Positions 9,059 through 28,200 of a DNA stretch of 64,000 nucleotides are shown here, piece by piece (the first letter of the stretch is position 1; each line of letters begins with the position of its first letter). This stretch comes from a virus. Both the position numbers and the translations under genes were made by a program. A model generated the notes under the pieces. The model worked only from the letters and a program-made list of their open reading frames with translations. It was not told the origin of the DNA and made no database searches. Location: positions 1 through 64,000 of IMG/VR virus record IMGVR_UViG_3300020418_000005. One strand, 5' to 3'.

Positions 9059-9061
9059 ACC

Positions 9062-9688: not shown

Positions 9689-9693
9689 AATAG

Positions 9694-10872: not shown

Positions 10873-10877
10873 TTTTG

Positions 10878-11570: not shown

Positions 11571-11582
11571 AATATTAATAGG

Positions 11583-11590
11583 TATTTATA
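11583..11590 (-). promoter_or_regulatory. Late promoter TATAAATA directly upstream of ho1
   Basis: Perfect consensus 12 nt before the ATG; contains the upstream gene's TAA. Confidence 0.7.
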
Positions 11591-11914: not shown

Positions 11915-11972
11915 AGTTCTACAGTTATTATACTATAATTATAGTCAAAAAGATAGTGTAGTTTACGCTTTG

Positions 11973-12284
11973 TTAGCAATTCCAAGCTCTTAGTGATTTG
12001 TTGATCCTACTATCAGGATCACTGGCAGTTTTCTTTGAAGTTAATTTCTTTTTCATTCCTTTCATTCTAGCACAAAAGGATGTCCGACGGGGATTTCCAA
12101 CCTTCTTGCTTGGTGCTTTAAGGTCAGATCCAGGATTTGCTCTTTCGTAAGACTTCCTTCCTTTCTCATTAAGTCCACCTTCTTTGTTCTTGCCAGCCTT
12201 CTTTGTCCAGGCTGCACCTTCTAAAATTCCGTTATCCTGCACATTGGCAGACTCAGCGAGTCTTTTAAATTCTTTGTATCTCAT
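11973..12284 (-). CDS. Basic protein, DUF6321-like; probable internal head protein
   Basis: GGLNEKGR, RRTSFCARM and SRINKSLRAWNC motifs. N-terminal MRYKEFKRLAE resembles the T4 capsid-targeting sequence. Confidence 0.75.
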   Translation of the reverse strand: MRYKEFKRLAESANVQDNGILEGAAWTKKAGKNKEGGLNEKGRKSYERANPGSDLKAPSKKVGNPRRTSFCARMKGMKKKLTSKKTASDPDSRINKSLRAWNC

Positions 12285-12308
12285 ATACCATGTCAGGGTC
12301 TATGCATT

Positions 12309-12315
12309 TATTTAT
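12309..12315 (-). promoter_or_regulatory. Late promoter ATAAATA
   Basis: Intergenic, about 25 nt upstream of the 12284 ATG. Confidence 0.6.
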
Positions 12316-12319
12316 GCAA

Positions 12320-12721
12320 CTATCTCTTGCCACCACCCATTTGTTTAAGCATTTTTTGTAATTCAGCAGTGCTACCAACGAACATAGCATTGTTAGTAAC
12401 ATTCTTAGGACCTTTTATTTCTTCATCAAGATCTTTCATTTTCTTATGTAAGTCTTGTAATTTCTCTGTCATGTCTGCAACATGTTTCATCGCCGCTACA
12501 GCAACTTCATATGCTCTAGGGTGACCACTTTCTTGTGCTACTTCCAATGCACCCTTCACCGCTTCTTGACCTTGGTCTATCAAAGAATATAATTCACCAC
12601 GAGTATATTCATAATCTTTTTGTTGATCATCTTCTTTTGATTTTACCTTTGGCAAGTTAGGTTTCTCAACATGTTCTACGTCCATGTTAAGAAGTTCCTC
12701 CATATTATCTTCTAGGTTCAT
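12320..12721 (-). CDS. g16: Terminase small subunit gp16
   Basis: DYEYTR, AQESGHPRAYEV and NNAMFVGSTAELQKML motifs. Confidence 0.95.
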   Translation of the reverse strand: MNLEDNMEELLNMDVEHVEKPNLPKVKSKEDDQQKDYEYTRGELYSLIDQGQEAVKGALEVAQESGHPRAYEVAVAAMKHVADMTEKLQDLHKKMKDLDEEIKGPKNVTNNAMFVGSTAELQKMLKQMGGGKR

Positions 12722-13518
12722 AAGAATTCAATCCCTTCATTAAATCCAAAGTCGTCACCAGCATCGACCAATGCATCATCTGCTGCATCAATGACACCAT
12801 CAGTATTGATATCAGTTTTTGCTTTGGGTGTATATGTTCTAGTGATAGCTCTACGACTAACTGCTGTATCACCAAGTGTTTCGTGTATGATTGCTTTCTT
12901 GATAACATCTGATGTGTTGTAAGGACCGTATAGATATGTCTTCATCTGGAAGTTAAGAGTGTAAACAATATATCTACGCTCGTAGAAACTATCATCCCAT
13001 GTATCCTCATATGATACATTGTTTAGAACAACAGCAATATCTTTCTTCTCATTCATATCAGGTATCATGTTGAGAGTAACACTGAATGATGGTTGGAAGT
13101 ATGGTAATATTTGCTCGGTGATTTGTAGGGCGTCGTCTTGTGACTTAGCAATTACGCCAAGTTCAAATGATAGGTTGTATGGTACAGGAACATACTGCAC
13201 TCTTACTTCACCACCATTGTTATTAATTATTGTTTTATACTTCTGAATAGGAGAAGTTTTACGGGTAGGATCGTAGTCAATGCTAGTCATTTCAAAGTAC
13301 AATCTTGGTAGAGTGATTGCTACTTTTCTATTGCTAGTATTTTCTTCTAGTCTTACAATAAATTTTTGTTTAGGACCGTATGCTAACGGTACTTTCATTT
13401 CTTCCAATACAGCACCAGTGCTTGGATCTGTACTCTTCATCGTAATATTATTGAAGAGTGTACCAAATGCTATTATGTTCTTACGAACTATCTGGTTGTA
13501 AAAGTGATTACCTAACAT
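12718..13518 (-). CDS. g15: Tail sheath stabiliser/terminator gp15
   Basis: FGTLFNNI, VPLAYGPKQKF, TLPRLYFE, PVPYN and EQILPYFQP motifs. Confidence 0.95.
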   Translation of the reverse strand: MLGNHFYNQIVRKNIIAFGTLFNNITMKSTDPSTGAVLEEMKVPLAYGPKQKFIVRLEENTSNRKVAITLPRLYFEMTSIDYDPTRKTSPIQKYKTIINNNGGEVRVQYVPVPYNLSFELGVIAKSQDDALQITEQILPYFQPSFSVTLNMIPDMNEKKDIAVVLNNVSYEDTWDDSFYERRYIVYTLNFQMKTYLYGPYNTSDVIKKAIIHETLGDTAVSRRAITRTYTPKAKTDINTDGVIDAADDALVDAGDDFGFNEGIEFL

Positions 13519-14408
13519 TATATGCTACCTGTAAAATTACCAAACTCACCGAATGGATTACGCTCTGACCAATCAACTATATTGTCAGCAGCATCTTCGA
13601 TTTGTCTATTTGCATCATACTCACTATTTGTATCCTGTAGTGTATCGAAGGTTGATACAACCCATACAGCACTACTGGTATTACCAGTAAGTGATTCGTT
13701 TGCTGCAAATGTTCCAGTTCTATTGATTACCTGTAGTATTCTTGTAGAACTATCCCATGACTTGACTTCTGCTGTTGTAGAAGTAGTACCACCAGTAACA
13801 GTCTCACCAGTAGTAAAGTCTCCTGTACCACCAACTCCCATTGTAAGAGCAATAGCAGTATCGAACAACTCTTCTATAGCATCTATCTCTGCAACACCAG
13901 TAGCAAGATCGTCTGAACCAACCTCGTATAGTTCTGCAGTAATTGCATAAAATTGAATCTTACCAAACTGGAAGAATGGTTCTTCCTTTCCGACATACTT
14001 AATTTCATACAAATCTTCTGTGAGAGGATAGTATAATAAATCCCCTTCATTAGGTCTACTAGGAACTGTGAGTTTTGCAGCCATACTATGTTCCGCTACT
14101 TCTTCATCCCATCTATTTGTAGACACACGAAAAATTATTTCGTCTGTAATACGTAAACCAAACTTACTTATAAATTCTGCATTGTCTCCAAAACCCATTA
14201 CATTTACAAGTAACATTTCAATTTGAAATTGATCTTGGAATTTAGTATATCTAACCTCGTCTAACGTGCCATCTGTTATAGCTGTTTTGGGTAGATAGTA
14301 TATGTCAGAACCAAAGAGTTTGATTTGCTCATCCACAAGATTCTGAACCAAAGTTTGTTCGCCACTGTGACCTTGGTGATAAGTTGGGAAGTAGGGACTT
14401 GTAGGCAT
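13518..14408 (-). CDS. g14: Neck protein gp14
   Basis: SKFGL, RPNEGDLLYYP, PFFQFGK and C-terminal NPFGE motifs. Confidence 0.93.
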   Translation of the reverse strand: MPTSPYFPTYHQGHSGEQTLVQNLVDEQIKLFGSDIYYLPKTAITDGTLDEVRYTKFQDQFQIEMLLVNVMGFGDNAEFISKFGLRITDEIIFRVSTNRWDEEVAEHSMAAKLTVPSRPNEGDLLYYPLTEDLYEIKYVGKEEPFFQFGKIQFYAITAELYEVGSDDLATGVAEIDAIEELFDTAIALTMGVGGTGDFTTGETVTGGTTSTTAEVKSWDSSTRILQVINRTGTFAANESLTGNTSSAVWVVSTFDTLQDTNSEYDANRQIEDAADNIVDWSERNPFGEFGNFTGSI

Positions 14409-14409
14409 T

Positions 14410-15222
14410 TTATCCGATCATATCCATTGGTGGTATAGCGTACTTACTGAGAACCTCACCTTCGATTTTCTCAATTTCTGCTAATGCGTCCATATAAAGT
14501 TCTCTACCATTAAGTGTTACACCGCCAGGTAATTGAACATTGTTATACTTGATCAAGTTCTGACCCCACTGTTTCTTCAACAATGAAGTAGCATATCTCT
14601 TTACAAATATATCATTATACATTTCGGTTGCATCATCTGGGTCTATCATACGATGAGCCTCTATCAACAGATTCTGTCCTTCTTGTAAGAAGTCCTTATC
14701 TATATCTAGATACAAACGATCACGACGCTGAGTATATCTAAACTGCTGGAATGAACCATTGTTTAAAACCATATCTAGAGTCTCTAGATATTGCTTGGTC
14801 ATATAGTAGTTTAAGATATCAAGAGATCCAAAGGCATACAAATCATTTAAGAATATTCTATATTCAATACCAAATAAGTTAGAACGAATAGAGTTACCTA
14901 CCATTCCAAATACCTTACTAATACCAGATACATGTGCTGGTATAGGTATAAAGTTTGTTGCTTCTTTCCAAGTGGTAGTTACACCAGCATCTACTTTAGT
15001 TGTATCAGTAGTTGCTGCAAGACGAGTTTTATCATCTGCAGTTATCTCGTGTACTAGATAACACCTCTCCATACCATTGTAACAATTCTCTTGAAAGAAC
15101 TGAAATGTGTCGTCAATTACATTGTTTACTTGCTCATCATCTACGTTAACTTGCAAGACAGGTTCACCTAATTGCCTCTTAGCATATGTAATCAATTCTG
15201 CTTTTGTACTTGGAGATGCCAT
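14410..15222 (-). CDS. g13: Neck protein gp13
   Basis: RQLGEPVLQVNV and KKQWGQNLIKYNNVQLPGGVTLNG motifs. Confidence 0.95.
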   Translation of the reverse strand: MASPSTKAELITYAKRQLGEPVLQVNVDDEQVNNVIDDTFQFFQENCYNGMERCYLVHEITADDKTRLAATTDTTKVDAGVTTTWKEATNFIPIPAHVSGISKVFGMVGNSIRSNLFGIEYRIFLNDLYAFGSLDILNYYMTKQYLETLDMVLNNGSFQQFRYTQRRDRLYLDIDKDFLQEGQNLLIEAHRMIDPDDATEMYNDIFVKRYATSLLKKQWGQNLIKYNNVQLPGGVTLNGRELYMDALAEIEKIEGEVLSKYAIPPMDMIG

Positions 15223-15246
15223 TACCCACTATAATCCCTTCATAGT

Positions 15247-15253
15247 TATTTAG
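15247..15253 (-). promoter_or_regulatory. Late promoter CTAAATA upstream of g13
   Basis: Contains the TAA stop of the upstream ORF; about 25 nt before the g13 ATG. Confidence 0.6.
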
Positions 15254-15450
15254 GAAGGATCAACGTTTGCGGGTGCTGCGTCAGGTGCTGGTGGTGTTTC
15301 TTGCTCTAAAAGACCTAGTGTTTCTAGTCCTCCTACAAGTTTTAATTTATATTCTTTTGCTTTTGCTAAATTCGTTTCTAACTCTGTTATCTGACTATCA
15401 GTCTTAGCAATTTGTTCTTCAAAGTTAGTTTTTAGTTGTGCTGGATCCAT
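15250..15450 (-). CDS. Small coiled-coil protein
   Basis: Heptad pattern plus a Pro/Ala tail; likely start is MDPAQL at 15450. Confidence 0.7.
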   Translation of the reverse strand: MDPAQLKTNFEEQIAKTDSQITELETNLAKAKEYKLKLVGGLETLGLLEQETPPAPDAAPANVDPS

Positions 15451-15455
15451 GGTTA

Positions 15456-15998
15456 TCAAGGTAAGAAATTAAAGTTTATTACGAATCGAGGTTTCTTTGT
15501 GGGTACGCTACTTGAATGATATCGTAGACCATCAAAGAAAACGCATCTACCTTTTACAGGAGATACTGTACTATTTATAGGGTATTCAGCAAGCGGTTCT
15601 CCGTACATTCTTTCGCTGAAATACGTGTCACCATCACTGTCTGATGCATAGTATAGACATACCAAATGTGGATCTGGTAAGTCAACATGCATAGAATCAT
15701 ACTCTTTTGTTCTCACACCTGGCGTCTGTAAAAAACATCTGCCACGTATGACTTTAGATATTGATATGCCTGTATTATAACATGCTTCAAATACTAATGG
15801 AAGAAACATTCCAGAGTATTTACTTGTAGAATTACCATTCAATATAAACATATGAGAGAAACCTACCAACTGACTCTCACCATCTTCACTAAGATTATCA
15901 TGATACACCCATCTAAAATCTGTATCATATCTCATAGTGCTTTCTAAAAGATTCTGATAGTTAGGATTGATGCAGTTGTCCTTAATAATGTTCTTCAT
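15456..15998 (-). CDS. 2OG-Fe(II) oxygenase
   Basis: HVD...H...R triad (MHVDLP, RYHSS, PRFVINF). Confidence 0.85.
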   Translation of the reverse strand: MKNIIKDNCINPNYQNLLESTMRYDTDFRWVYHDNLSEDGESQLVGFSHMFILNGNSTSKYSGMFLPLVFEACYNTGISISKVIRGRCFLQTPGVRTKEYDSMHVDLPDPHLVCLYYASDSDGDTYFSERMYGEPLAEYPINSTVSPVKGRCVFFDGLRYHSSSVPTKKPRFVINFNFLP

Positions 15999-16578
15999 CT
16001 ACACCCTCCACATTCCATATCAAGTTACCAGATACTGTTACCCTTTCTTTTTGTGTAGACTTAAAAGGATATACAGCATGTTTGGTTGTAGATGGAAACA
16101 TAAGTATTACACCGTTCCAAGTTTTATCTACTGGCAATACATCTGCTTCTAATTGAAACGCACCATTACTATTATGTGACTCTCTTTCTTCAGAACCATA
16201 TGGTATGTCTGTAAAAATTACAAAACTTACTATACCAGTGTGTGTATGTATAGGATTGTATTCATACTGTTGCTGGTAATTTACCCACAGGTTTCTCAGT
16301 CTTATAAAAGGAGTTACGTTTTTTGCTTCTTGAAAATCCCACGGGCATGTTTGATATACCTGTGACCACAACTGTGTAGATAGTCCAACAACATATTCTT
16401 CAAACTGTGGACTCCAATCAGATAGACTTGACTGTTGTTCTAATGCACCAGCAAGTTTATCATTGTAATTCCAAGTCTCTTCCTCCCTTCTTCTCTGTGT
16501 GTAAGAAAGTAATTCTTGATATAAATTTTGTGGCATTTTCTCTGATAGAAAAGAGAAACTATCTTGACTGTATATCAT
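15982..16578 (-). CDS. 2OG-Fe(II) oxygenase-like protein (HxH type)
   Basis: WVNYQ..YNPIHTH, FPSTTKHAVYPF and RVTVSGN motifs. Confidence 0.85.
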   Translation of the reverse strand: MIYSQDSFSFLSEKMPQNLYQELLSYTQRRREEETWNYNDKLAGALEQQSSLSDWSPQFEEYVVGLSTQLWSQVYQTCPWDFQEAKNVTPFIRLRNLWVNYQQQYEYNPIHTHTGIVSFVIFTDIPYGSEERESHNSNGAFQLEADVLPVDKTWNGVILMFPSTTKHAVYPFKSTQKERVTVSGNLIWNVEGVDEEHY

Positions 16579-17090
16579 GCGTATAAATCTGCACTTAAAC
16601 TATATCGTTTTTGATTTTGAATACCTTTGCCAGGTAAGTGTGGTAAGTTAGATGGAAAGATAAACCAAGTCAATTCTTTTTTAGGTAAAAAATATGGATC
16701 TCTTTTTGGCATAGGAAACATAGTAGTTCCAGACTCACCTAGTTTTATATACATTATACCAGATAATGTGAAAGGATTGTCTGGATTGTGTGAATGCATA
16801 TATGGTTCTATTGGATTATTATTCCAATCCACATACACCCATGAATTTATTTGGAAATCAAATATATCCATACCCCAATACCTAGAACAAGCATCATGAA
16901 ATGTCCATTTTAATTTTTTGATAATAGGTTCATCATACTCTAAGAAATCATCTTTACCATCAGTAAAGGTAAGTTTAGATACATGAGCCATGTTTTGAGT
17001 AAGAGAATCGTTTTCAATATTAGTATCAATAAACTCTATAAGTTTATCTGCGTCAATATCTACTGGATACTCTCTAATTCCTAATACCAT
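16575..17090 (-). CDS. 2OG-Fe(II) oxygenase-like protein (HxH type)
   Basis: MHSH, LSGIMY, IFPSNLPH and RYSLS motifs. Confidence 0.8.
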   Translation of the reverse strand: MVLGIREYPVDIDADKLIEFIDTNIENDSLTQNMAHVSKLTFTDGKDDFLEYDEPIIKKLKWTFHDACSRYWGMDIFDFQINSWVYVDWNNNPIEPYMHSHNPDNPFTLSGIMYIKLGESGTTMFPMPKRDPYFLPKKELTWFIFPSNLPHLPGKGIQNQKRYSLSADLYA

Positions 17091-17662
17091 TTTCTTGTAT
17101 TCTGTGCAATTATCTTATCGTGAATCTCAGGATCACAAAATGAGAAAGCAATAGTAGTTCTAATCTCATTACCTATTAGTGTGTTTGGTGGTTGTCCTTT
17201 ATGTAACCAGTTAGAAGGAATCAATGCACCTGTATTAGGTACGTATGGTGTGTGATGATATTCATCATCTGGTGTTTGACATACAAACTCACCACCCCAT
17301 TCTTGATCCCAATGTGGTTGATTAAAGTATATAAATGTCCAGACATTATGTTCTTCCCAGTCCTTATGAAACATTGTATTCTGTCCTGCTGTCTGTCCAT
17401 TAGCATGTATCTTACAGAGTTTGATATCTCTCCTAAGAAATTTCATTATCTTTAATCTAACTGTAGTAGCACACTTAGTAAATATCAAATCAGTTCTTAG
17501 TGGATGTTGCCATGATACTGGATCACCCTGTCCATAAGATGCATTATTAAATGTCCATGTAGCAAGTGAGTTCATAGATGGTGATCTACGATCAAAGTAA
17601 TCCCATAATGATATTCTCTCTTCTTGAGATAATACATTACGAATAACGTGAGGTTTATTCAT
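17081..17662 (-). CDS. 2OG-Fe(II) oxygenase
   Basis: NGQT..FHKD, WDQEWGGEF, WLHKG and RTTIAF motifs. Confidence 0.88.
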   Translation of the reverse strand: MNKPHVIRNVLSQEERISLWDYFDRRSPSMNSLATWTFNNASYGQGDPVSWQHPLRTDLIFTKCATTVRLKIMKFLRRDIKLCKIHANGQTAGQNTMFHKDWEEHNVWTFIYFNQPHWDQEWGGEFVCQTPDDEYHHTPYVPNTGALIPSNWLHKGQPPNTLIGNEIRTTIAFSFCDPEIHDKIIAQNTRKWY

Positions 17663-18192
17663 GCATCACCCCATATCTGAATTGTATATCTAAACTCAGG
17701 TGTATCATGTGCAACAGTAGTTACTAAGTGACTCTCACTACAGTCATTTAATACTAGCATATTTTGTTCTGGTAGAACTGCTCTGTAAACATCAGTTTTG
17801 TTTGGATCTTCATCTAAATTAAGATCAGCATGATCCATCCATACAAACCAACCACCAGCATTTGGATGCCAATGTTCATTTAGATATAGTGTTGCACCAA
17901 ACAAATGATGAGTGTCAGAGTGTACTCCAATACCAGCACCTGGTTGCCATACATTATATCTACATGTCAACTTTTTAAACTCTGGTGCGTGTGGTTTTAA
18001 ATGTCTTGATATTTCATCACTGAATACTTTAGGAATAGCAGTAGCAATAGTTGATCCATGAACACCTTGTCTTAAAAATGGTTTCCATGCAAAGTTACTA
18101 GAAGACCAGCAGTCAGTATTCAACTTAGATCTAAAGTCGTCTACACATGCGTCAAGTAATGATTTAGGTAAAAAGTTCTTTATAATTTTCAT
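17659..18192 (-). CDS. 2OG-Fe(II) oxygenase (prolyl-4-hydroxylase-like)
   Basis: VHSD, ATLYLNEHW...GG, SHLVT and RYTIQ motifs; start revised to MKIIKN (ATGA overlap). Confidence 0.88.
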   Translation of the reverse strand: MKIIKNFLPKSLLDACVDDFRSKLNTDCWSSSNFAWKPFLRQGVHGSTIATAIPKVFSDEISRHLKPHAPEFKKLTCRYNVWQPGAGIGVHSDTHHLFGATLYLNEHWHPNAGGWFVWMDHADLNLDEDPNKTDVYRAVLPEQNMLVLNDCSESHLVTTVAHDTPEFRYTIQIWGDA

Positions 18193-18752
18193 ACCCACCA
18201 AAGCCATCCAGTTATAATATATTTTTCATGCTCCTCTGATATCACACCTCTATGTTTATGTGTTAATCCAGCAGGAAAAATTAATGTTTTTCCTTTCTTT
18301 GCCTCTACAGTATATTCCTGATAAAAGAATTCAGTTCCTCCATTAGGAACATCATTTAGATATGTGATGTATACAAATGCTCTATCACACCCATCAGATC
18401 CTGATGCATCCACATGCCAAGTATAAAAACCATCACCTGGTTTATAGTATTGAATCTGTGGTAGTCTTTGCATTACAAATTCTTGATTGTGAATAGTCAA
18501 AGAGTTCAAGTAATTATCAATAAATCCATTTAACTCTTCTTGGTATAAATCAAATTTATAATCACTAGGTTCTCCTAGAGGACCTGCATCTTCAATAAAA
18601 AAATCTCTACTCTTTTTTACCTCAGGCATGACACTCCCACCACCTACACGACCAGCATAAGTCAAATCTATTTTATCGGCGTCTTTGTATAGATCTATAA
18701 GACGATCACATATACTAAGATCACTCAATGTATATTCTTTTATAAATCTCAT
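18189..18752 (-). CDS. 2OG-Fe(II) oxygenase (P4Hc-like)
   Basis: WHVD, YLNDVPNGGTEF, THKHRG and KYIITGW motifs. Confidence 0.9.
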   Translation of the reverse strand: MRFIKEYTLSDLSICDRLIDLYKDADKIDLTYAGRVGGGSVMPEVKKSRDFFIEDAGPLGEPSDYKFDLYQEELNGFIDNYLNSLTIHNQEFVMQRLPQIQYYKPGDGFYTWHVDASGSDGCDRAFVYITYLNDVPNGGTEFFYQEYTVEAKKGKTLIFPAGLTHKHRGVISEEHEKYIITGWLWWV

Positions 18753-19315
18753 TTATATGCAGGTCCTTGTGTCCACCCAACAAGAGAATGTCTAACACCT
18801 TTAGTCACTGGTTTAACTCTGTGTGGAGTATCAGCATGAAATATTATAACATCTTTCTTCTTTAATTGTACCACATTTTTTTCAGTTGTCTGTATCTCAA
18901 ATTCACCACCTTCAAAATCATCATTTAACATAACTGTAAAACTTATTTTACGTATCCTATTGTTAGGTCTTTTACCTTTTGTCCAACCCATCTCATCACA
19001 ATGCCAATCATAGAAATCACCTACATCATATTTTGTACGTTGTAGAGGTTCCATAAAATTTACATCTAAATTCCAATCACATTTGGTATTAGCAAAATGC
19101 ACAAGACCATCCATCATTGCATAGACTTCATCATTGTCTATCCAGCATAACTTTGAACTTCTATCTTTATTATGTTGTGCTTGATATTTGTTACCATCCC
19201 ATTGATCTGTCTTACCTGATTCATAATCTTGATATGGTTTTATTGCTTTTTCTAATTGTGGAAAGAAATCATCATCAAGATGGACTACCATGTATTGATG
19301 TTTAAATGAATTCAT
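18749..19315 (-). CDS. 2OG-Fe(II) oxygenase (PKHD/YbiX-like)
   Basis: FYDWHCD, RKISF, FEGGEF and HRVKPVTKGVRHSLVGW motifs; start revised to MNSFKH (ATGA overlap). Confidence 0.9.
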   Translation of the reverse strand: MNSFKHQYMVVHLDDDFFPQLEKAIKPYQDYESGKTDQWDGNKYQAQHNKDRSSKLCWIDNDEVYAMMDGLVHFANTKCDWNLDVNFMEPLQRTKYDVGDFYDWHCDEMGWTKGKRPNNRIRKISFTVMLNDDFEGGEFEIQTTEKNVVQLKKKDVIIFHADTPHRVKPVTKGVRHSLVGWTQGPAYK

Positions 19316-20994
19316 TTTTGTAATACCATAACATGTATACCATTCCACCAACCATTAGGATCTTCTGGAACTTTAGTTAGTATTTTTCTCTCAAATAATA
19401 AATTGAGTTTATGTTCTTTTATCCAGAACTCAGATGATTGCACAACACCCATAAAGTTTGCATCGTCAACAACAAGAATAAACTTGTCTGCAAATGCAGG
19501 AATTAAGAATGTAAGATTATCATACTGAGCTTGTGGATCGTGGTCTGCATCATAGAAAATTACATTAGGTTGTTTGTGTAAATCTCTAGGAGTTAGATCT
19601 TGAATTGTCTTAGCACAAAAATATTGTTTCTCTTGTAGTCCTGCCCAAAATATTTTCTTAGGATCTTCATATCCTTCTACTTCTACTTCATCTCTAAAAG
19701 GTGATATCTCTTTCTCAGAATAATTATCTATAGCAAATGATTCTACATCTCTATTCATAGTAGCAGCATAAAATGTGCTACCAGCATGAACTCCTAACTC
19801 CATGTAGATTGCATCAGGTTTAGATAATAAATTATTTAAAAAATGTCTTACTATATTAGATGACAGACCTTCATACTTATATCCTTCCTCTATAAAATTA
19901 CTTTCTCTCCTTGCTGCCTTATCAATAGATTCTAATACTAATTTAATATCGTCATCAAAATGTCTGTCGTTCTTTTTCATTCTAGATTGAACAACAGAAT
20001 CACAATAATTACAATCCCAACAGTCAAACTTACATGTCTTTATTTTTTCTCGCCATATATCAATTGGTCTCTCTTCTAAAGAAACGTCTTCAATATATTC
20101 ATTAAACTGTGGATGTAAAAGTTCTTCATTAGTTTTCCATCTATTAATAATAGACATACTTTCATAAAGACGCATAGCATTTTCTCTACCATGCATCTTG
20201 AATACATCTATACCAAGATCAATAAATTCTTCCCAGTCTTTCCTCCATGGAGGTATAGTTGCTGCTTTCAATGATGCTGCAGGATCTTTCTCATCCCATG
20301 TAGAACAAGATACTCTACTGATACTATCGTTAAAATATTGTGGGTCATCTTTCTCTCTTACCATATTATAATGGTAATGCTCTGGCATGATCGGGCATCC
20401 ACCCCAACACCACTCATTAGAAAGTAATGATATCTTGACAGGTTTACCTATAGATGCACAGTATTCTTTTGCTTTCTTAATTTTAAGTAGAGAATCTCTA
20501 TCACGCATAAGATCTCTGTCTAGATTGATATAATAGAATCCTGCCTTTGCAAGATTTACAATTTCATTTGGTCTAGTAACTTCTCTGAGTATAGTATTCT
20601 TTACTTTTAATTCTGGAAACTCTCTCTGTATCTGCCCAGTCAACATCCATGTTGTATGTGGTAGGGTAACTATACGAACACCATTGTCATACAAGAATCT
20701 AAAATTCTCAATAAAAATATCCAAGTTCTCTTGTGTAGGAGGAACTTGGATATTATTAAATGTTGCAGACAAAGGTATCCCAGTCTCCTGTGATACAAAC
20801 AAAGCATTTAAAGTTGTTTCTCTGATGTCACCATCAATTACGTCACCCATTGCATCTTGCGTAAAGGGTGGCATACGACAGGTAAAATAGATATCGTAGA
20901 TATATTCCTTATGTTCTTGTAGAAAAGGAATGAATTGGTTTACTACAAAATCCTCAGGTAATTTAGTATTAAGAGGTAGCGAGAAACTTGCCAT
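19312..20994 (-). CDS. Fusion of a peptidase-U32-family (putative Fe-S) domain and a class I SAM-dependent methyltransferase
   Basis: N-terminal part has INLDRD, NEWCWGGCP, VSC, DVFKMHGRE and CKFDCWDCNYC. C-terminal part has YMELGVHAGST, IFYDADH and VVDDAN (Methyltransf_24-like). Confidence 0.75.
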   Translation of the reverse strand: MASFSLPLNTKLPEDFVVNQFIPFLQEHKEYIYDIYFTCRMPPFTQDAMGDVIDGDIRETTLNALFVSQETGIPLSATFNNIQVPPTQENLDIFIENFRFLYDNGVRIVTLPHTTWMLTGQIQREFPELKVKNTILREVTRPNEIVNLAKAGFYYINLDRDLMRDRDSLLKIKKAKEYCASIGKPVKISLLSNEWCWGGCPIMPEHYHYNMVREKDDPQYFNDSISRVSCSTWDEKDPAASLKAATIPPWRKDWEEFIDLGIDVFKMHGRENAMRLYESMSIINRWKTNEELLHPQFNEYIEDVSLEERPIDIWREKIKTCKFDCWDCNYCDSVVQSRMKKNDRHFDDDIKLVLESIDKAARRESNFIEEGYKYEGLSSNIVRHFLNNLLSKPDAIYMELGVHAGSTFYAATMNRDVESFAIDNYSEKEISPFRDEVEVEGYEDPKKIFWAGLQEKQYFCAKTIQDLTPRDLHKQPNVIFYDADHDPQAQYDNLTFLIPAFADKFILVVDDANFMGVVQSSEFWIKEHKLNLLFERKILTKVPEDPNGWWNGIHVMVLQK

Positions 20995-21217
20995 AATCTA
21001 CGATCACTGCTTCCATATATAAATGTTCTTCACCAGGTTTATCTACTAAGATACCCTTGTGTGTCTCTGCTAGTTGCTCCAACTTTGATTGATCCAATTG
21101 TGGATATGTAATAGTGTCGCCACTTGTATCCCCTAATTCATACCTTTGCCATATAGCATGATGAATTACAGGCAATAGATCAAGATGTCTACTTGTTGGA
21201 TTAAAAAATCTATCCAT
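20969..21217 (-). CDS. Hypothetical protein (about 82 aa)
   Basis: Overlaps both neighbours; likely start is MDRFFNP. Confidence 0.65.
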   Translation of the reverse strand: MDRFFNPTSRHLDLLPVIHHAIWQRYELGDTSGDTITYPQLDQSKLEQLAETHKGILVDKPGEEHLYMEAVIVDYGKFLATS

Positions 21218-22046
21218 TTTCCCCTTGTAATTTGTATTGGTTTTCACCCTGTCCACTATATTTATGTTCTAACAGTTTAGGCATTACTATACCATCCTGT
21301 GCTAACTGTGCTTGTAACTTCGGTGCGATCATTTTATTTAGTTTGTCAATACCACCACCAATCATACCAGAATACTGAACAGCAACACCAAGTGTTTCTA
21401 CCTGATCTTCCTCTGGCATATCCATGATTGTAGTCATGTTACCAGAACCAATTCTACCATAAGAAATAATATCCATTGCTGCTTGTTTGCCCATACGAGC
21501 AATCCAATACATTCTTACTTCCTGATGATTCTCTTGACAATAATACTCTAAAGGATGCTCGTCGTCAACATATTTGTCAACAACATTTAAGAAATACTTT
21601 AACTCTAGTTCAGATTGCCTGAGTTTCCTTTTCCAAATACCAATATCATAATCATTTTTTTCCATATCAATTTGCATCAACTCTCTATCAAGTTCGTCAG
21701 GAAGCAATGGCATGTCCCTGTTCAATCTTTTTCTAAGAATCTCTGCCTTTCTAAGACTATTTCTATTCTCCATGTATGCATGATATCTAGTTTCTAGTTC
21801 CATCAATGCTTGACGGACTTTTCTCCATGGAGTTAATTGAGGGTCAGCAACAAAGTGCTCACACTCATACTCTGTCATACCACTATCAAAACGCATAGAT
21901 GCAGACAAGACATCAAAGTCTTTTTTAGTGAGTGCGAACTCGTCTACAAATGACTTTGATAAATGTATTTCGTTTGTGTCTGAACTTATTATATTTTTTA
22001 CGTCTGCAATTATATCTGAAAAATTAGCGTCAGAATTTAAAGACAT
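21210..22046 (-). CDS. Hypothetical helical/coiled-coil protein
   Basis: 278 aa with TPWRKVRQALMELETR and YWIARMGKQAAMDI..GRIGSGN segments; no function recognised. Confidence 0.8.
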   Translation of the reverse strand: MSLNSDANFSDIIADVKNIISSDTNEIHLSKSFVDEFALTKKDFDVLSASMRFDSGMTEYECEHFVADPQLTPWRKVRQALMELETRYHAYMENRNSLRKAEILRKRLNRDMPLLPDELDRELMQIDMEKNDYDIGIWKRKLRQSELELKYFLNVVDKYVDDEHPLEYYCQENHQEVRMYWIARMGKQAAMDIISYGRIGSGNMTTIMDMPEEDQVETLGVAVQYSGMIGGGIDKLNKMIAPKLQAQLAQDGIVMPKLLEHKYSGQGENQYKLQGENG

Positions 22047-22839
22047 AGGGTTCTACCTCATACTCTGGTTTGCGATCCCAGTCAGTATCAGATTTTGTTC
22101 TCCCCATCTCAATCGCTTGCTTTTGAGGCAACATGATACCAATGTGATCTTCATATAATATATTTAGGTCCCAAATTTCAGTGCAACTTTCAAATTTCTT
22201 TATTAGGATTTGATATTCTACTAGCATTGTAGATAGTTTATCTTCCCATGCTTCTGCATTTGCAAGTATCTTATTTGAAAGAGTGTCTTTGTCAATATGT
22301 CTTTCAGCAGATAGGTAGTCTAAGAAAGGAGTTTTACTACCACCTAGTCCTTTATTTTCTAACCATTCTCTTGCTTCATGCTTTTGGATTTCCCAAGATG
22401 CTACTTCTAGATCTGTAGTGTTCTTAAGATTCTTAAGACGTGTGTTGTATTCATCTTCAATAATTTCTTTTGCAAAATATATCATGAAGTCTACAACTTC
22501 TTTCTTAATTTCTGGTGTAAGTTCGATAGGAACTTTTAAAACTGGGTTAGCAGGAGTCCATGCATAACCAGCTGAATCAACCGATGCAGCAACCTTACCA
22601 AACGGTCTAATTTCTGAGAAGAAGTTTGATCCGTTATATGCTTGTGCTTTTGTAACTTCTAAGTATTTGTGTTCCCATTCTTTAGATATAGTTTGGAAAA
22701 CTGTTTCACTGACCTCTACACATGAGAAGTGCATCAACGAAAACATTTCGCTGTAGTGCAGTCTGGTATCCCCAGTAGCAGTCATGTTTACAAACTGTTC
22801 TGGATTGATTTCTTTTTCGTTGACGATTAAGTATCTCAT
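22030..22839 (-). CDS. Putative tail-fibre assembly/chaperone protein
   Basis: SWEIQKHEAREWL...TPFLDYLSAERHIDKDTLSNKILANA resembles tail-fibre-assembly helical domains; follows the putative tip protein. Confidence 0.55.
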   Translation of the reverse strand: MRYLIVNEKEINPEQFVNMTATGDTRLHYSEMFSLMHFSCVEVSETVFQTISKEWEHKYLEVTKAQAYNGSNFFSEIRPFGKVAASVDSAGYAWTPANPVLKVPIELTPEIKKEVVDFMIYFAKEIIEDEYNTRLKNLKNTTDLEVASWEIQKHEAREWLENKGLGGSKTPFLDYLSAERHIDKDTLSNKILANAEAWEDKLSTMLVEYQILIKKFESCTEIWDLNILYEDHIGIMLPQKQAIEMGRTKSDTDWDRKPEYEVEPYVFKF

Positions 22840-24125
22840 TATTGTGCTCGTTTAGCAGTTACAGAAGCGGATGCTGAACAGCAACCACCAGAAGATGTTC
22901 CATAATGTCCTTTTGGTCTAGTAGCAGCTGGCATATTTGTTTCAACGTCAGTGGAGTAATCCCACTTAGTTGTATGGTTGTTCTGCTGACCATCATATTG
23001 TCCCATCATGTATCCTTTGTCTTGACCCATCATCATATTTTCTTCACCATAAGCACGAACTTTAGTTCCGTTCTTAAGACCAGCTCCAGATGATCCACTG
23101 TATTTAGTCCAAGGTGATGTAACATTGTTACCAGTTCCACAGTAGAAGTGACCATACTTAGAAGGAAGTGGTTTACAAACTCCGTCAGGAGACATGTTAG
23201 ATGACCAACCAGCCCAACTATCGTTGGAATGATTGACGTAGTATCTACTACCACGGAAGGATGCCCAAGATCTATTCTCATCACCACAAGATGCAGTGTG
23301 GTCAGAACCAGAAGGTGAGTTACCTACCTGATACATGATCTCAGATGAGTAGTGAAGTTTACCTACAGCAGAGTTACCTCCACCTAAGTTGTAACCAAAC
23401 TGTTGTACCTGTGCAGTAGCAGTTGAGTTTCTATCTCGGTTAACTGGCATATTCCAACCACCAACAGTTGTATATCCCATAACTCCTCTAGGATCGTCTC
23501 CTTCCCAACCATATGGTGAGGTTGGAGAGTAAGTACCACCGCCTGGGTTTGATCCAGTAGTACCAAACATTCGTCTCATACCTGTGTGTAGGTTGATCGA
23601 GTCTGTAAAGTTAGAAGATCCCGTGAAAGAGTTAACGCAACCATGACCATACCCGAAGTAATCACTCCATGTACAGTCAGCGTAAGTAAGTGCTCTAGTT
23701 AGTTGTTCTCCACAATAGAAAGTAATATCATTTGCATGCCATGTTTTATTAACCGTTCTCCAAGGATTAGATCCTTTATACCCCGCCACCAGATAACCGT
23801 GTGTTATCAAACTTCTATATCTGAATCCTGTAAGAGGAGCAGATGCAACAGTCTGACCAGGATACGCCCAGAAAACACCGTTGCTTCCATCAGATACTAG
23901 ATAAGAACCTCTAGTTACATCAGCTGGTTCTGGAATACCACCACCAACTTCATCCCAGTCTGAACCATTCCAAATCTGTGCCTTACCTTCAGATGTATTG
24001 AAGATTAATTGACCTACGTTTGGTGATGCTGGTCTATTCGAGTTATTAAAAGATGGCAGTTTAAGACCTTGCGTCGTTAAACTCGCATTACCTGTTAAAA
24101 CTGTTCCAACTGTTAACTGAGACAT
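22839..24125 (-). CDS. Putative virion adhesin: fibre-type N-terminal module plus a repeat (beta-propeller/kelch-like) domain
   Basis: RPASPNVGQLIFNTSEGKAQIWNGSDW fibre module, then recurrent GYxxGG-like blades rich in G/S/Y/W. Confidence 0.6.
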   Translation of the reverse strand: MSQLTVGTVLTGNASLTTQGLKLPSFNNSNRPASPNVGQLIFNTSEGKAQIWNGSDWDEVGGGIPEPADVTRGSYLVSDGSNGVFWAYPGQTVASAPLTGFRYRSLITHGYLVAGYKGSNPWRTVNKTWHANDITFYCGEQLTRALTYADCTWSDYFGYGHGCVNSFTGSSNFTDSINLHTGMRRMFGTTGSNPGGGTYSPTSPYGWEGDDPRGVMGYTTVGGWNMPVNRDRNSTATAQVQQFGYNLGGGNSAVGKLHYSSEIMYQVGNSPSGSDHTASCGDENRSWASFRGSRYYVNHSNDSWAGWSSNMSPDGVCKPLPSKYGHFYCGTGNNVTSPWTKYSGSSGAGLKNGTKVRAYGEENMMMGQDKGYMMGQYDGQQNNHTTKWDYSTDVETNMPAATRPKGHYGTSSGGCCSASASVTAKRAQ

Positions 24126-24149
24126 GGTTACACTACTTTCCTATAAGTT

Positions 24150-24156
24150 TATTTAT
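24150..24156 (-). promoter_or_regulatory. Late promoter ATAAATA heading the adhesin-U32-oxygenase operon
   Basis: Lies at the only sizeable intergenic gap between 15250 and 25261; about 25 nt before the 24125 ATG. Confidence 0.6.
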
Positions 24157-24506
24157 GGTTTGGGATTGTTTTCTTTAACTTCTTTCACTTTCTCAAACCA
24201 CTTGGATGTTTCTTTGCCTGGTATAATACCAGCATCCATGTCATGATATAGCATATCCAATTGTTCTGCAAAATCTGGATACTCTTGTTTGCGAGCAAGA
24301 TCGTATGCAGTTGGTTCACGAACTATTTTTTGTAATTCATTTGTTGCTCGGTTGAATTCATAGTCAGCCTCGCCTAAACCTTTATCTATTTCTTCTAGAT
24401 ACTGCACCCACATGAAATCTTCATGTACCTCAAACTGGTCGTCTGATCCACCTTTCACGAACTGAAGTACAGTTCCGTTATGTTTATTTACAAGTACTTG
24501 ATACAT
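24153..24506 (-). CDS. Putative tail-fibre chaperone/assembly protein
   Basis: RKQEYPDFAEQLDMLYHD...WFEKVKEVKENNPKP is typical of genes following marine phage fibre genes; TAATG coupling to the upstream gene. Confidence 0.65.
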   Translation of the reverse strand: MYQVLVNKHNGTVLQFVKGGSDDQFEVHEDFMWVQYLEEIDKGLGEADYEFNRATNELQKIVREPTAYDLARKQEYPDFAEQLDMLYHDMDAGIIPGKETSKWFEKVKEVKENNPKP

Positions 24507-25273: not shown

Positions 25274-28200
25274 TTATACAATAGCCCAGTTACCACCACT
25301 ATTTATAGTGACTGTATAACCGTTAGCAATGGTGATAGGTCCTGCACTAACACAGTTAATGTTTGCAGGAATTGTTATATTCTCAGCAACAGTATTACTG
25401 TTTGACTTGAATATACCATAAGAGTCGATCCACTGTTTAACGCCATTAGCATATAGGAAACCGTTCTCTATGTTAGTATCTCCAGAAATATGTAACTGAT
25501 ATGTTGGATTAGTTCTATTAATTCCAACTCTAGATAATCTGTAAATATCTAGATTGTTAGATGCTTCTGTCCATCTAGATGTTACGAACTCAGAGTTGTT
25601 CTGGAACAACTGTCCGTTAATGTTCATATCACCTTGAACATTTAGATAGTAACTTCTAGTTGTGTTTGATTCAGAGTCAACACCAGATATTGCTGATGTA
25701 TTAATAGCAACTCTTCTGTCACCTCTAACATAAATTGCAGGAGTGCTATCCCAGTTCTGACCACCATTGTTTGTAGATGGTGTTATCTCAAACGCATTGT
25801 TATGACCAATCTGGTTACCAATTCTAAAGTTTCTTTGTGAGTTAGAACCTAAGAAGTATATTGGTGCACCAGAGTTATCATTAGCAGAATCTATATATGC
25901 ACCAGTAGTAAATCTTGCATTACCACCAACATCAAGAGTGTAACTTGGATTGTTATTATTAACACCAAGTCTTCTTTCAGCAACGATATCTCCAAATACT
26001 TTAAATCCAGTGAGTGCTTCTGATCCAAACAATTCCCATCCATCGTTCCATGGAGTACCAGAAATAGATCCATCTTGATGCTTATACTGGAATGTTCCTT
26101 GTTGAGTGTATCCTCCTTGATGATCACTAAATTTAATCTTAGCACCAACACCGTTACTACTGGTGCGAATTAGGATACCATCATTACCCTGTACGTGAAG
26201 TGTTGATGCTGGATTTGTAGTATTGATACCAACCTCATAAGCAGATACATCAACAAACAAAGCACCAGAAACATTAAGATCATTATTAACGTTAGTGAAA
26301 TTATTGAGGTTTGTAATACCAGCGACTGTAAGTCCAGAAGTACCACCAGTGATGTTCAATGAACCAGTCATTGTATCACCAGTCTTCAATACGTTAAGTG
26401 ATGCAGAACCAACTAAGTTTGCTGTAATTGTTCCAGCAGAGAAGTTACCAGATCCATCACGTTGTACAGCATAATTTGGTGTGTTGGAACTTGAGAATTG
26501 TATGTTACCTTGGTTCCAAACAACTTGGTTCTTAATTGTAAATCCGTCAGCATTTACAACATCAACGTTAAGAGAACCAGATCCTGCAGATGCATTACCA
26601 CCTGATGCTTCTATCTTAGCGTTGTAACTAGCAGCGAGCTGAGATGAGTTGAATAATATTCTAGGTGTAGTTGCGTTACCATCTTTTCTACCTAGTTGTA
26701 ACTGTCCAACACCACCATCACTATGTAAGTTACAAACTTCTAGTGTGTTACCATCTTCAATAGTAAAGTCATCAAACTCTACTCTGTTAGATGCAGTACC
26801 AACTGTTAGAGCACCAGCAAAATTACCAGATGTAAGTCTACCAATTAAGATTGTAAAATCATTGAAGTTATCATTAACATCATCATTTGTGATAACGTTG
26901 TCAATAACAAAACTACCAACACCCTGTGCGTTAGCATTGTAAAGGTTTACAGATGGGTTATTAGGATCGCCAGGTATGAATGGTGCTGTATTTAATATTT
27001 GACCTGAGACATATATTCTAAACTTAGGATCACCAGCAAATGCTTTGATCGTGACCTTATCTCTAAACTTAGTCTCACTAATAAATCTAGGAAGTCTATT
27101 ATCAGATAATGTTCCGTAGTTAATGTTTAATGCATTCTGATACCAAGCACCTTGTCTGTTGTCTAGTTTATCAGCATCCATTCCAGAATCAACACCATCA
27201 CTTAATGATGTCCATACCTTCGCCCATGAATTCCATGTGCTGACTCCATTACCAGAACCACGAAGATACATGTTGTCATCATTAGCAAATGCAAGTTGTC
27301 TTACACCACCAAACGATGCGTCAAAACCAGAGGCACCATTTCTTATAGTTAGAACTAAGTGCTTAGTAGATGTTCCAGTTCCAATACCTGTGTTAACAGA
27401 AGGATATGCAGTTCCTAATCCATTAGAACTGTTGAATACTGTGTTAGAAATAACACCCTCAACGAAACTGTTTGGATTTGGGTTAGAGGTTGGGTTGTTA
27501 GTACCAGTTTGTAATCTAATTGTGTTAGCAGAAGATCCACTAATATCAATACCATATATACCACCTAGTCTATCTTGTGGAACTTGTCCAGCGAATAAGT
27601 GGTTTGCATTGGTATAGTAATTACCTTGCTGTCCATCTAATAAGTCAGCATCCAATCCACTATCAGGACCAGTCTTAAGTTCAACAGATCCGTTTCCTGC
27701 TTGACCAATATTAAATTGTGATTTTTTATATCTGGAAACACCAATTGTTCCGTAGAGGTCAGCAGAAATTGTTAGGTCAGTAACCCTGTTAATATCAAGA
27801 GAAACGTTTGCATACTGTCTATTGACTGTACTTACTTTTGCATTTAATACTAAACTAGATCCACCACCAATTGATGATGGTGCAACTGTAATTGAGAAGT
27901 CAGCATTATATCCAGTACCACCATCAGTAACAGTAAGTTCTGTAACTGTATTACCAGAAACAACAATATTTGCTTTGAGTCCTGTACCAGTACCACCCTG
28001 TAAAGGTTGGTCAAAATATTGTCCGTTTGTAAATCCTGATCCGCCGTTTGCAATGATAACATCATCAACGAATCCACCCTGTGTAAAGGTAGACTCAAAT
28101 GTCATTGGTGATTCACCACGCTCAAACTCAATGATTGTTCCTAATGGAATATTTTGAGTAACTGGATTGTTCAATGCTATGGTTGTTAATCCAGCGGCAG

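Follow-up and report, generated by a model that had tools for sequence, protein, structure and literature searches.

Locus architecture and gene neighborhood

The minus strand of the window (the whole stretch of 64,000 nucleotides analyzed, from the IMG/VR virus record IMGVR_UViG_3300020418_000005) encodes at 19312..20994 a protein of 560 amino acids that starts with ATG and belongs to PHROG 1458 (E 7e-229). The original prediction, which placed here a U32-like iron-sulfur domain joined to a methyltransferase, concerned a real open reading frame, and its observation on this region is confirmed, far beyond chance. The fusion gene is widespread among marine T4-like cyanophages and conserved, and all isolate genomes that were checked annotate it as 'hypothetical'; the cultured relatives that carry it include S-RIM2, S-CAM4, P-RSM1, Syn2, and P-HM2. 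At E≤1e-20, the protein has matches in more than 2,000 database clusters. Contigs from RNA libraries also contain the gene, which bears on its presence and bridging only and not on transcription level, strand, or transcript ends.

The AlphaFold model of the whole 560-residue protein has a mean pLDDT of 89.8 and shows two domains. The proposed boundary near residue 345 agrees with this model and with the existence of stand-alone relatives of both halves, which measure about 340-380 residues (the 1-345 type) and about 205-225 residues (the 346-560 type). All of the quoted motifs are found: NEWCWGGCP at residues 193-201, FKMHGRE at 265-271, and CKFDCWDCNYC (CxxxCxxCxxC) at 321-331. Searches of the fusion protein against NCBIfam, and of the whole protein and the N-domain profile against PDB sequences, returned no match. 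Matches of the whole model to pyruvate kinase were set aside as two-domain artefacts (rmsd about 23 Å).

Just upstream of the fusion gene lies a gene for a 278-aa protein of PHROG 1409 (21210..22046, minus strand), which had no match in Pfam, PDB-profile, and Atlas searches. This partner is directly upstream in 144 of the 160 fetched fused loci (142 by direct BLAST); in the Ralstonia jumbo phage RP31, a homologue immediately precedes the gene for a stand-alone N-domain, and another is located about 2 kb upstream in locus L005. A 95-aa open reading frame (20969..21256, minus strand) overlaps the end of the partner and the start of the fusion, with homologues in 56 of 80 close-relative loci. Further upstream, a 269-aa gene (PHROG 1604) and a 428-aa fiber-like gene rich in Gly, Ser, Tyr, and Trp (together 22030..24125, minus strand) overlap or abut in one run; in 92 and 110 of the 160 loci, respectively, they again precede the fusion. 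Downstream, seven tandem 2OG-Fe(II) oxygenase genes (15456..19351, minus strand; PF13640/PF13759) overlap one another by 4-40 nt. Of these seven, which the original prediction took as O2-dependent, six match 2OG-Fe(II) oxygenase Pfam models (E≤0.0032, four of them above the Pfam threshold), while the seventh reaches only E 0.16. The seven-gene array accompanies the fusion in close relatives only.

The N-terminal domain is a divergent U32-like barrel

Residues 1-345 (19960..20994, minus strand) form a U32-like (β/α)8 barrel followed by Cys-rich helices at the C-terminus, as supported by the domain model (pLDDT 93, pTM 0.92), fold comparison, and hhalign. The check proposed originally, AlphaFold and Foldseek on these residues, ranked the U32 protein Mk0906 (PDB ID: 5d88) first. 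VIA-align gave Z 16.6 with an rmsd of 3.3 Å over 226 of 247 residues, the next-best barrel having Z 13.2, and Foldseek gave E 5.7e-7 and a TM-score of 0.65 on the target. When three family alignments were compared by hhalign with 34 genuine PF01136 proteins, P was 6e-5, 1.6e-5 for the clade lacking the methyltransferase, and 1e-3 for another subgroup, versus 0.35-0.95 for reversed or unrelated control profiles; the hhalign probabilities were only 21-79% across the three alignments. The motifs matched in this comparison are colinear (N80 with N79, R160 with R153, C196/C200 with C181/C188, KxxGR with KxxGR, and C321/C325 with C304/C308). The nearest neighbors according to a protein language model are Atlas clusters in which about 20% of the members bear PF01136.

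Formal family membership is a different matter. PF01136 (gathering score 22.4 bits) had no match in the fusion protein at E≤1, in 83 relatives at E≤0.01, or, at E≤10, in a six-frame translation of the phage record, whereas 10 of 14 control genomes were positive. A regular-expression search of the fusion protein with what we take to be the PROSITE-type U32 signature (E-x-F-x2-G-[SA]-[LIVM]-C-x4-G-x-C-x-[LIVM]-S) was also negative. The published four-Cys motif of U32 proteins, CX6CX15CX3/4C or, in the UbiV variant, CXnCX12CX3C, binds [4Fe-4S] (PMC6747719); its canonical spacing is absent, and the protein has instead C-x3-C-x29-C and a separate four-Cys cluster. The predicted U32 domain is upheld by fold, profile-profile comparison, and language-model neighbors, but not by Pfam or by the canonical Cys spacing; in the preferred explanation, it belongs to the U32 superfamily as a highly diverged member. 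The remark that such a protein is unexpected in a phage of an oxygenic host carries little weight, since Synechococcus has U32 genes of its own, as shown by a PF01136 match in the control genome of Synechococcus elongatus.

Conservation was evaluated in 127 distinct fused homologues of 43-99% identity. Seven cysteines (C196-x3-C200-x29-C230 and C321-x3-C325-x2-C328-x2-C331) together with E194, H206, K266, G269, and R270 are each present in 127 of 127. The segment E194-W-C196-x3-C200-P...E-H206 (20377..20415, minus strand) follows the seventh strand, and its C196 and C200, alone among the invariant cysteines, align with the canonical four-Cys motif, namely with C181/C188, which form the CX6C pair in genuine U32 proteins. 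The third invariant cysteine, C230, is located within RVSC230S (20302..20316, minus strand) and is invariant in 49 diverse N-domains as well as in all 127 fused proteins. In the last barrel strand, FK266-M-H-G269-R270-E (20182..20202, minus strand) aligns, within high-confidence hhalign columns, with K251-x-x-G254-R255, a motif that is invariant in true U32 proteins. The C321-C331 cluster (20002..20034, minus strand) may form a second site for a metal or an Fe-S cluster; its C321 and C325 align with the C-terminal Cys pair C304/C308 of a true U32 subfamily. The UbiV ligands C39/C180/C193/C197 seemed to be matched by C39/C179/C196/C200, a correspondence that was dropped because C39 and C179 are not conserved across the family.

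The C-terminal domain is of the O-methyltransferase type

Residues 346-560 (19315..19959, minus strand) constitute, by fold and motifs, a cation-dependent class I O-methyltransferase of the COMT/CCoAOMT/TrmR/TylF-SpnH types. The predicted methyltransferase is thus of the O-type (COMT, TrmR, sugar O-methyltransferases) and not of an N- or C-methyltransferase type. Apart from 5d88, nearly all of the 50 best VIA-align matches are O-methyltransferases (Z 13.3-14.9 over about 170-190 residues), headed by SpnH (14.9), COMT (14.8), TomG (14.7), MeT1 (14.5), and TrmR (14.1). Among Pfam models, the curated O-methyltransferase profiles (Methyltransf_3, TylF) had no match; only the generic Methyltransf_24 was found, at 23.6 bits (cut-off 26.3) in this protein and above the cut-off in relatives (e.g., 43.1 bits). 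The PDB profile match of the domain to YrrM is weak (E 0.0036-0.017), and some homologues carry the JGI name 'predicted O-methyltransferase YrrM'.

The SAM-binding motif I, YMELGVHAGST (residues 397-407; 19774..19806, minus strand), aligns with LEIGTAIGYS of YrrM/TrmR (PDB ID: 5zw3). F-Y-D482-A-D-H485 (19540..19557, minus strand) corresponds to FIDAAK of TrmR and contains a predicted metal-binding Asp and a His at the position of the catalytic base, while V-V-D510-D511-A-N513 (19456..19473, minus strand), the second predicted metal-binding motif, aligns with TDN of TrmR. G401, G405, D423, D482, D510, D511, and N513 are present in all 127 fused homologues and H485 in 103. Mean column conservation in this set is 0.74 for the N-domain versus 0.55 for the methyltransferase.

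Fused, split, and methyltransferase-less forms

The fetched viral loci contain 162 fused open reading frames. In rare split forms (L168; L165/L182), the methyltransferase is encoded directly downstream of the N-domain, with overlapping ends. An independent instance of the association comes from a cellular MAG, where an O-methyltransferase of unrelated type (Methyltransf_2) is encoded two genes downstream of a stand-alone N-domain. In RP31, the genes adjoining the stand-alone N-domain do not encode the missing methyltransferase and are not paralogues.

The methyltransferase is absent altogether from a sister clade. Downstream of the U32-like gene of this clade, 53 of 70 informative loci have a tryptophan-type halogenase and 9 loci a gene of the O-carbamoyltransferase type. 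This clade was not found in isolated phages, where the matches are of the fused type with 25-31% identity.

Proposed function and alternatives

The best reading of the fusion, for which we see an about even chance, is that it hydroxylates and then O-methylates, converting a ring C-H to a methoxy group. On this view, an uncultured marine T4-like cyanophage encodes a tailoring enzyme that would complete two steps with a single chain. The seven invariant cysteines most likely serve as ligands of one or two iron-sulfur clusters. If TrhP, RlhA, and UbiU/UbiV are taken as models, the N-domain would oxidize an aromatic or heteroaromatic C-H with an oxygen atom that comes not from O2 but from another donor (in the known cases, prephenate), and the C-domain would cap the new hydroxyl with the methyl group of SAM. 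The 278-aa protein encoded immediately upstream probably acts together with the enzyme. The halogenase beside the methyltransferase-less clade provides a context of ring chemistry for this reading. The hydroxylase assignment builds on the genetics of distant relatives, because no in vitro hydroxylation by a U32 protein has been reported so far (PMC10990095).

The lack of a U32 protein with proven direct hydroxylase activity also favors another division of labor, in which the methyltransferase caps hydroxyls made by neighboring 2OG-Fe(II) oxygenases and the U32-like domain, instead of hydroxylating, for example transfers electrons, holds the substrate, or carries out a different redox step. The oxygenases are frequent neighbors that could provide the hydroxyl: seven such genes with overlapping ends come after the fusion, and in 58 loci, spread over all three clades, the U32-like gene has a 2OG oxygenase at most 100 nt away. 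We nevertheless consider this arrangement rather unlikely. Homologues of the seven oxygenases of the window are nearly missing from the more distant fused clade, and other 2OG oxygenases occur in only 28 and 31 of 80 distant-clade loci, yet the fusion and the N-domain residues are invariant even there; the N-domain is the better conserved of the two domains, and the stand-alone N-domain of RP31 has no oxygenases nearby. A phage counterpart of TrhP plus TrmR, acting on the pyrimidine C5 of tRNA, rRNA, or DNA (e.g., U34 to ho5U to mo5U), is improbable, even though two of the three characterized U32 systems (TrhP and RlhA) modify RNA pyrimidines, the C-domain has TrmR as one of its best matches in both sequence and fold, and trmR and trhP are operon partners with hydroxylase-TrmR fusions on record (PMC6599085). 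Neither an RNA-binding domain nor the C-terminal domain of TrhP was found by Pfam or in the AlphaFold model, there are no tRNA genes within the 64-kb window, and fiber genes surround the fusion in the majority of the 160 loci. Moreover, the sister clade pairs with an aromatic halogenase and not with RNA enzymes, and TrmR does not stand out among the matches but is level with sugar and catechol O-methyltransferases.

The spacing C321-x3-C325-x2-C328 is canonical for a radical-SAM-type cluster and invariant, the N-domain is a TIM-type barrel, and the L005 homologue is immediately preceded by a radical SAM gene, all of which would fit radical chemistry in the barrel. The fusion protein has no PF04055 match, however; its CX3CX2C is located at 321-328, after the barrel rather than after the first strand, the 50 fold matches listed include no radical SAM enzyme, and C321/C325 align with a Cys pair of a genuine U32 subfamily, so that radical SAM chemistry appears still less probable than nucleic-acid modification. 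Least probable is a protease that processes the nearby glycine-rich fiber proteins. Databases do label U32 as 'peptidase' or 'collagenase-like PrtC', and glycine-rich fiber-like genes lie upstream; but the characterized U32 proteins are Fe-S hydroxylation factors and not proteases, as originally stated (PMC6747719, PMC6599085, PMC10990095), the fused O-methyltransferase would have no role in proteolysis, and the nearby fiber proteins lack collagen-like GXY repeats.

For the preferred sequence of hydroxylation and O-methylation, the original prediction had considered RNA, DNA, or protein as the target. An aromatic side chain of a fiber-tip protein and an amino-acid-derived small molecule appear about equally likely, and tRNA less likely than either. 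If the target is a fiber protein, the enzyme would represent a new kind of virion maturation. In a more speculative extension, which we think is probably wrong, aquatic phages decorate the aromatic residues of their own fiber-tip proteins: the fusion would write methoxy groups and the VirX1-type halogenase of the sister clade would write halogens, the two being alternative 'pens' of a swappable cassette behind the fiber genes. If true, this would be an enzymatic virion modification that influences host recognition; a viral halogenase would have its first natural substrate, and a single-chain U32 hydroxylase amenable to study would be at hand.

U32 proteins have been described as almost exclusively bacterial and rarer in archaea (PMC10990095), and our literature search did not find a description of a viral U32. 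The more than 2,000 clusters represent a very abundant viral U32-like branch. The analysis offers a concrete biochemical hypothesis for a cyanophage gene of 'hypothetical' annotation, and the built-in O-methyltransferase, which would trap the product, possibly makes the fusion an easier single-chain system for U32 chemistry. In addition, it connects the gene with the as yet unexplained oxygenase/halogenase islands found in cyanophages and with the question of what VirX1-type halogenases act on in nature.

Comparison with known systems

The TrhP/TrmR precedent invoked in the original prediction is real. TrhP (YegQ in E. coli; TrhP1/TrhP2, i.e., YrrO/YrrN, in B. subtilis) and TrmR (YrrM) convert tRNA U34 to ho5U and then to mo5U, and yrrM-yrrN-yrrO form a single operon (trmR-trhP1-trhP2; PMC6599085). 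Both systems combine a U32-type protein with a catechol-type metal-dependent O-methyltransferase. The phage enzyme differs in being one polypeptide, with an N-domain beyond the reach of PF01136, seven invariant cysteines in another pattern, no TrhP C-terminal domain, and a context of viral fiber genes instead of translation genes. The TrhO-TrmR fusions of Phytophthora and Phaeodactylum resemble it in uniting a hydroxylase and an O-methyltransferase in one protein (PMC6599085), but their hydroxylase is the O2-dependent, rhodanese-type TrhO, whereas the phage protein has a U32 barrel.

UbiU-UbiV, the O2-independent ubiquinone ring hydroxylases, share the U32 barrel and have known [4Fe-4S] clusters, which in the phage protein are predicted. 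Ring hydroxylation in their pathway is followed by O-methylation by UbiG, and there are two clusters per functional unit (PMC6747719, PMC10990095). UbiU-UbiV is a heterodimer of two U32 chains with a four-Cys cluster each, while the phage protein has a three-Cys and a four-Cys site in one chain; in place of the UbiT/SCP2 partner it has the unrelated 278-aa protein. Mk0906 from Methanopyrus kandleri, although the best structural match, has 10% sequence identity, and relative to it the phage N-domain carries about 70 extra C-terminal residues with the four-Cys cluster.

With respect to genomic context, the dioxygenase/halogenase cluster gp40-gp54 of Syn9 is the same kind of island in T4-like cyanophages (Iyer, Abhiman, de Souza, Aravind 2010, PMC2938197). 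Islands of this type hold many unrelated 2OG oxygenases and tryptophan-type halogenases, and synthesis of secondary metabolites was proposed for the Syn9 cluster (PMC2938197). In the cyanophage halogenase VirX1, the active site is large and open, and the enzyme has no known natural substrate (PMC8407142). The description of the islands contains no occurrence of U32 and no mention of a U32-like/O-methyltransferase fusion; the tight link of the U32-like gene to halogenases and to the 278-aa partner goes beyond it (PMC2938197).

Relationship of the N-terminal domain to U32 proteins

The gene at 19312-20994 (minus strand) starts with ATG and encodes 560 aa, and its translation contains every motif quoted in the original prediction: NEWCWGGCP (residues 193-201), FKMHGRE (residues 265-271), and CKFDCWDCNYC (residues 321-331). 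The protein is most aptly seen as a member of a new viral branch of the U32 superfamily, highly divergent and joined to a metal-dependent O-methyltransferase. Formal Pfam membership of the N-terminal domain (residues 1-345) in U32 fails because PF01136 (Peptidase_U32) is matched neither by the fusion protein, nor by any of its 83 relatives, nor, at E<=10, by a six-frame translation of the phage record. The same profile matches 10 of the 14 control genomes, including Synechococcus elongatus, so the surprise at meeting an O2-independent enzyme in an oxygenic host has little foundation.

The AlphaFold models, confident both for the whole protein (pLDDT 89.8) and for the N-terminal domain alone (pLDDT 93.0, pTM 0.92), place Cys-rich helices after a beta/alpha barrel of eight strands. 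The top match is a solved U32 protein, Mk0906 (5d88), both in Foldseek and in VIA-align (Z 16.6, rmsd 3.3 A, 226/247 residues, 48,161 representative chains); the next barrel, MTHFR, lies 3.4 units lower (Z 13.2). A PF01136 gene from a Deltaproteobacteria MAG (L001:1456-2388, E 5e-32) led to 34 bona fide U32 sequences, with which the phage family aligns at P 6e-5 in hhalign, the methyltransferase-less viral clade at P 1.6e-5 (probability 79%), and a third subgroup at P 1e-3, against P 0.35-0.95 for reversed or unrelated profiles. The phage-family alignment is colinear across the barrel (N80 with N79 and R160 with R153 of true U32 proteins); it pairs C196/C200 with the CX6C pair C181/C188, K266-x-x-G269-R270 with the invariant K251-x-x-G254-R255, and C321/C325 with a C-terminal Cys pair. 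Among ESM-Atlas clusters, the nearest (scores 0.96-0.98) come from viruses and bacteria, contain PF01136 in 20% of their members, and include one auto-named 'Peptidase U32 (Fragment)'. Fold, profile comparison, colinearity, and language-model neighbours are four independent lines that agree: the domain is U32-like, distantly. The predicted U32 identity holds on these grounds, but not by PF01136 or by Cys spacing.

The published four-Cys spacing (CX6CX15CX3/4C, or CXnCX12CX3C in the UbiV variant; PMC6747719) is absent from the phage family, which has seven invariant cysteines of its own (C196, C200, C230, and C321, C325, C328, C331). These may plausibly form two putative metal sites within one chain. 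C39 and C179 were considered as UbiV-like ligands and rejected: both vary across the family, so the matching numbering is coincidental.

The methyltransferase domain and conservation of the fusion

Below 5d88, the top 50 VIA-align rows for the whole model consist almost entirely of cation-dependent O-methyltransferases, such as the rhamnosyl 4'-O-methyltransferase SpnH (Z 14.9), catechol O-methyltransferases (14.8), TomG (14.7), MeT1 (14.5), TrmR (14.1), and CCoAOMT (13.7). The family profile matches YrrM/TrmR (5zw3) weakly (E 0.0036-0.017): motif I aligns with LEIG...G, FYD482-x-x-H485 with FIDAAK, and VDD510/511 with TDN, positions that correspond to a predicted metal-binding triad and catalytic base. 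Fold neighbours and aligned motifs bear out the methyltransferase half of the proposed fusion; the fold does not discriminate among sugar, catechol, and ho5U substrates.

Among 127 distinct fused proteins from the fetched viral loci (43-99% identity), all seven cysteines are conserved without exception, together with N80, K132, T134, R160, R164, E194, H206, K266, G269, and R270 in the N-terminal domain and G401, G405, D423, D482, D510, D511, and N513 in the C-terminal one; H485 is kept in 103. Fused ORFs number 162 among about 240 viral loci. Split forms occur at three loci, which represent two contigs (L168; L165 and L182 being one contig), where the methyltransferase ORF lies directly downstream and overlaps the end of the N-domain ORF. 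This is a fusion/fission pattern: selection acts on both halves, and they are coupled in function.

In tblastn, the fusion protein is matched in 123 Synechococcus/Prochlorococcus myovirus genomes (identity <=57%), the underlying cyanophage gene being annotated 'hypothetical protein' among the matches listed; the N-terminal part alone is matched in three Ralstonia jumbo phages. The sole Pfam match is a sub-threshold Methyltransf_24 (residues 399-511, 23.6 bits vs a cut-off of 26.3), and NCBIfam gives none. PHROG 1458 covers the whole protein and PHROG 36869 the N-terminal domain, both without known function. Some full-length homologues already bear the JGI name 'predicted O-methyltransferase YrrM'; no database entry among the matches listed carries a U32 label or PF01136. 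The RefSeq start of the S-RIM2 orthologue (NC_020859; locus L006, 9001-10707) is about 47 codons late, so that the annotated protein (521 aa) lacks, among other residues, the first strand of the barrel, a conserved element modelled with confidence. Database relatives (P0145, P0006) show other architectures: in one, a GT2 glycosyltransferase is fused to the same methyltransferase family (709 aa), and in another, DUF7483 takes the place of the methyltransferase beside the U32-like domain (553 aa).

Genomic context

The source record, an IMG/VR fragment of 74.8 kb, is estimated at about 39% completeness. The fusion gene belongs to a minus-strand run (24125 to 15250) whose genes abut or overlap by 1-47 nt: a 428-aa Gly/Ser/Tyr/Trp-rich fibre-like protein, a 269-aa protein (PHROG 1604), the 278-aa partner (PHROG 1409), a GTG-started 95-aa ORF (20969-21256), the fusion gene, seven 2OG-Fe(II) oxygenase genes, and a 69-aa ORF. 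The 95-aa ORF shares 47 nt with the end of the partner gene and 26 nt with the start of the fusion gene; since 56 of 80 close-relative loci have homologues, it may be a genuine small gene. Exact late promoter boxes of the T4 type (TATAAATA, minus strand) lie at 25300-25307, upstream of a 251-aa Gly-rich gene, and at 15572-15579, within the first oxygenase gene; there is none directly before the fusion gene.

In two seawater studies, RNA libraries yielded contigs covering the entire block at about 97-99% identity; these bridge the boundary between oxygenase array and fusion gene (18032-19548 and 18600-20300) as well as those between the fusion gene and the 428-aa gene (20292-24179). They document presence in RNA libraries and are compatible with co-transcription, which is not proof of transcription or of a single transcript. 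In three runs from two studies, the contigs all share the same foreign continuation from 24179, just upstream of the 428-aa gene, which looks like a recombination or cassette boundary.

The partner, which has no recognisable family, is encoded just upstream in 144 of 160 fused loci (142 by direct BLAST); its start lies about 940 nt ahead of that of the fusion gene, with the 95-aa ORF in between in close relatives. In Ralstonia phage RP31, its homologue immediately precedes the gene for the stand-alone N-domain (ORF137 then ORF136), and in a locus binned to Bacteroidota (L005) it lies about 2 kb upstream of the U32-like gene, which directly follows a radical SAM gene. The seven O2-dependent enzymes of the original prediction do follow the fusion gene, but their homologues are nearly confined to close relatives; some 2OG oxygenase often adjoins the U32-like gene in all clades. 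Downstream of the fused gene, members of the more distant fused clade encode a membrane protein resembling DUF401/CitMHS (PHROG 14035; L170 9673-10722 and 33 other loci), a transporter-like gene that is odd within a phage structural region.

The methyltransferase-less clade (about 418 aa; 80 loci, L088-L167) is absent from isolated phages and found in metagenomes only. Of the 70 loci that extend far enough downstream, 53 have a gene for a flavin-dependent tryptophan-type halogenase (PF04820, E 1e-108) after the U32-like gene; a NodU/CmcH-type carbamoyltransferase gene follows in 9. The halogenase is VirX1-like (e.g., L089 9208-10833) and directly adjacent in 30 of its 53 loci. Upstream lie a 137-aa PHROG 1787 protein and tail fibres with S74 chaperone domains.

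Stand-alone N-domains also occur in cellular MAGs, in four different settings, one being that of L005 described above. In L004 (9932-13737), the U32-like gene is followed in turn by genes for an SBP_bac_5 protein, an unrelated O-methyltransferase (Methyltransf_2), and a histidine kinase, and is preceded by a 2.5-kb AT-rich region with short ORFs only. In the Deltaproteobacteria locus L001, it lies 3 kb from the true U32 gene; here, true U32, U32-like, asparagine synthase, B12-binding radical SAM, and FAD oxidoreductase genes share one strand (1456-16224), a set like a biosynthetic cluster. The same MAG carries two more U32-like loci, L003 and L002, the latter with the gene between those for a trypsin-like protease and a GT2 glycosyltransferase. 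The common thread of these neighbourhoods is ring or hydroxyl tailoring: halogenation, O-methylation, O-carbamoylation, and oxygenation.

Possible function and comparison with known systems

By analogy, the most economical mechanism would be hydroxylation of a ring C-H followed by O-methylation, a reading to which we give an even chance. The divergent U32-like domain fused to a metal-dependent O-methyltransferase speaks for it, although formal Pfam membership in U32 does not. Were it correct, an aromatic residue of a fibre-tip protein and an amino-acid-derived small molecule would be equally credible targets, each somewhat short of an even bet, while a nucleic-acid base would be rather unlikely.

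Literature searches combining U32 with cyanophage or phage returned nothing relevant. Iyer et al. 2010 (PMC2938197), in which 'U32' appears nowhere, described ten dioxygenases and two halogenases clustered in Syn9 and proposed secondary-metabolite synthesis. The active site of VirX1 from cyanophage Syn10 is large and accessible, and the enzyme has no known natural substrate (PMC8407142). The Bacillus precedent invoked originally is sound: in B. subtilis, the single operon yrrM (trmR), yrrN, yrrO makes mo5U34, and some eukaryotes carry TrhO-TrmR fusions (PMC6599085). In UbiU-UbiV, prephenate is the oxygen donor, and the proposed mechanism is a two-electron oxidation of the aromatic ring with the Fe-S clusters as electron relay. 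Both UbiU-UbiV and TrhP1-TrhP2 use two chains, whereas the phage protein would hold its two putative metal sites in one.
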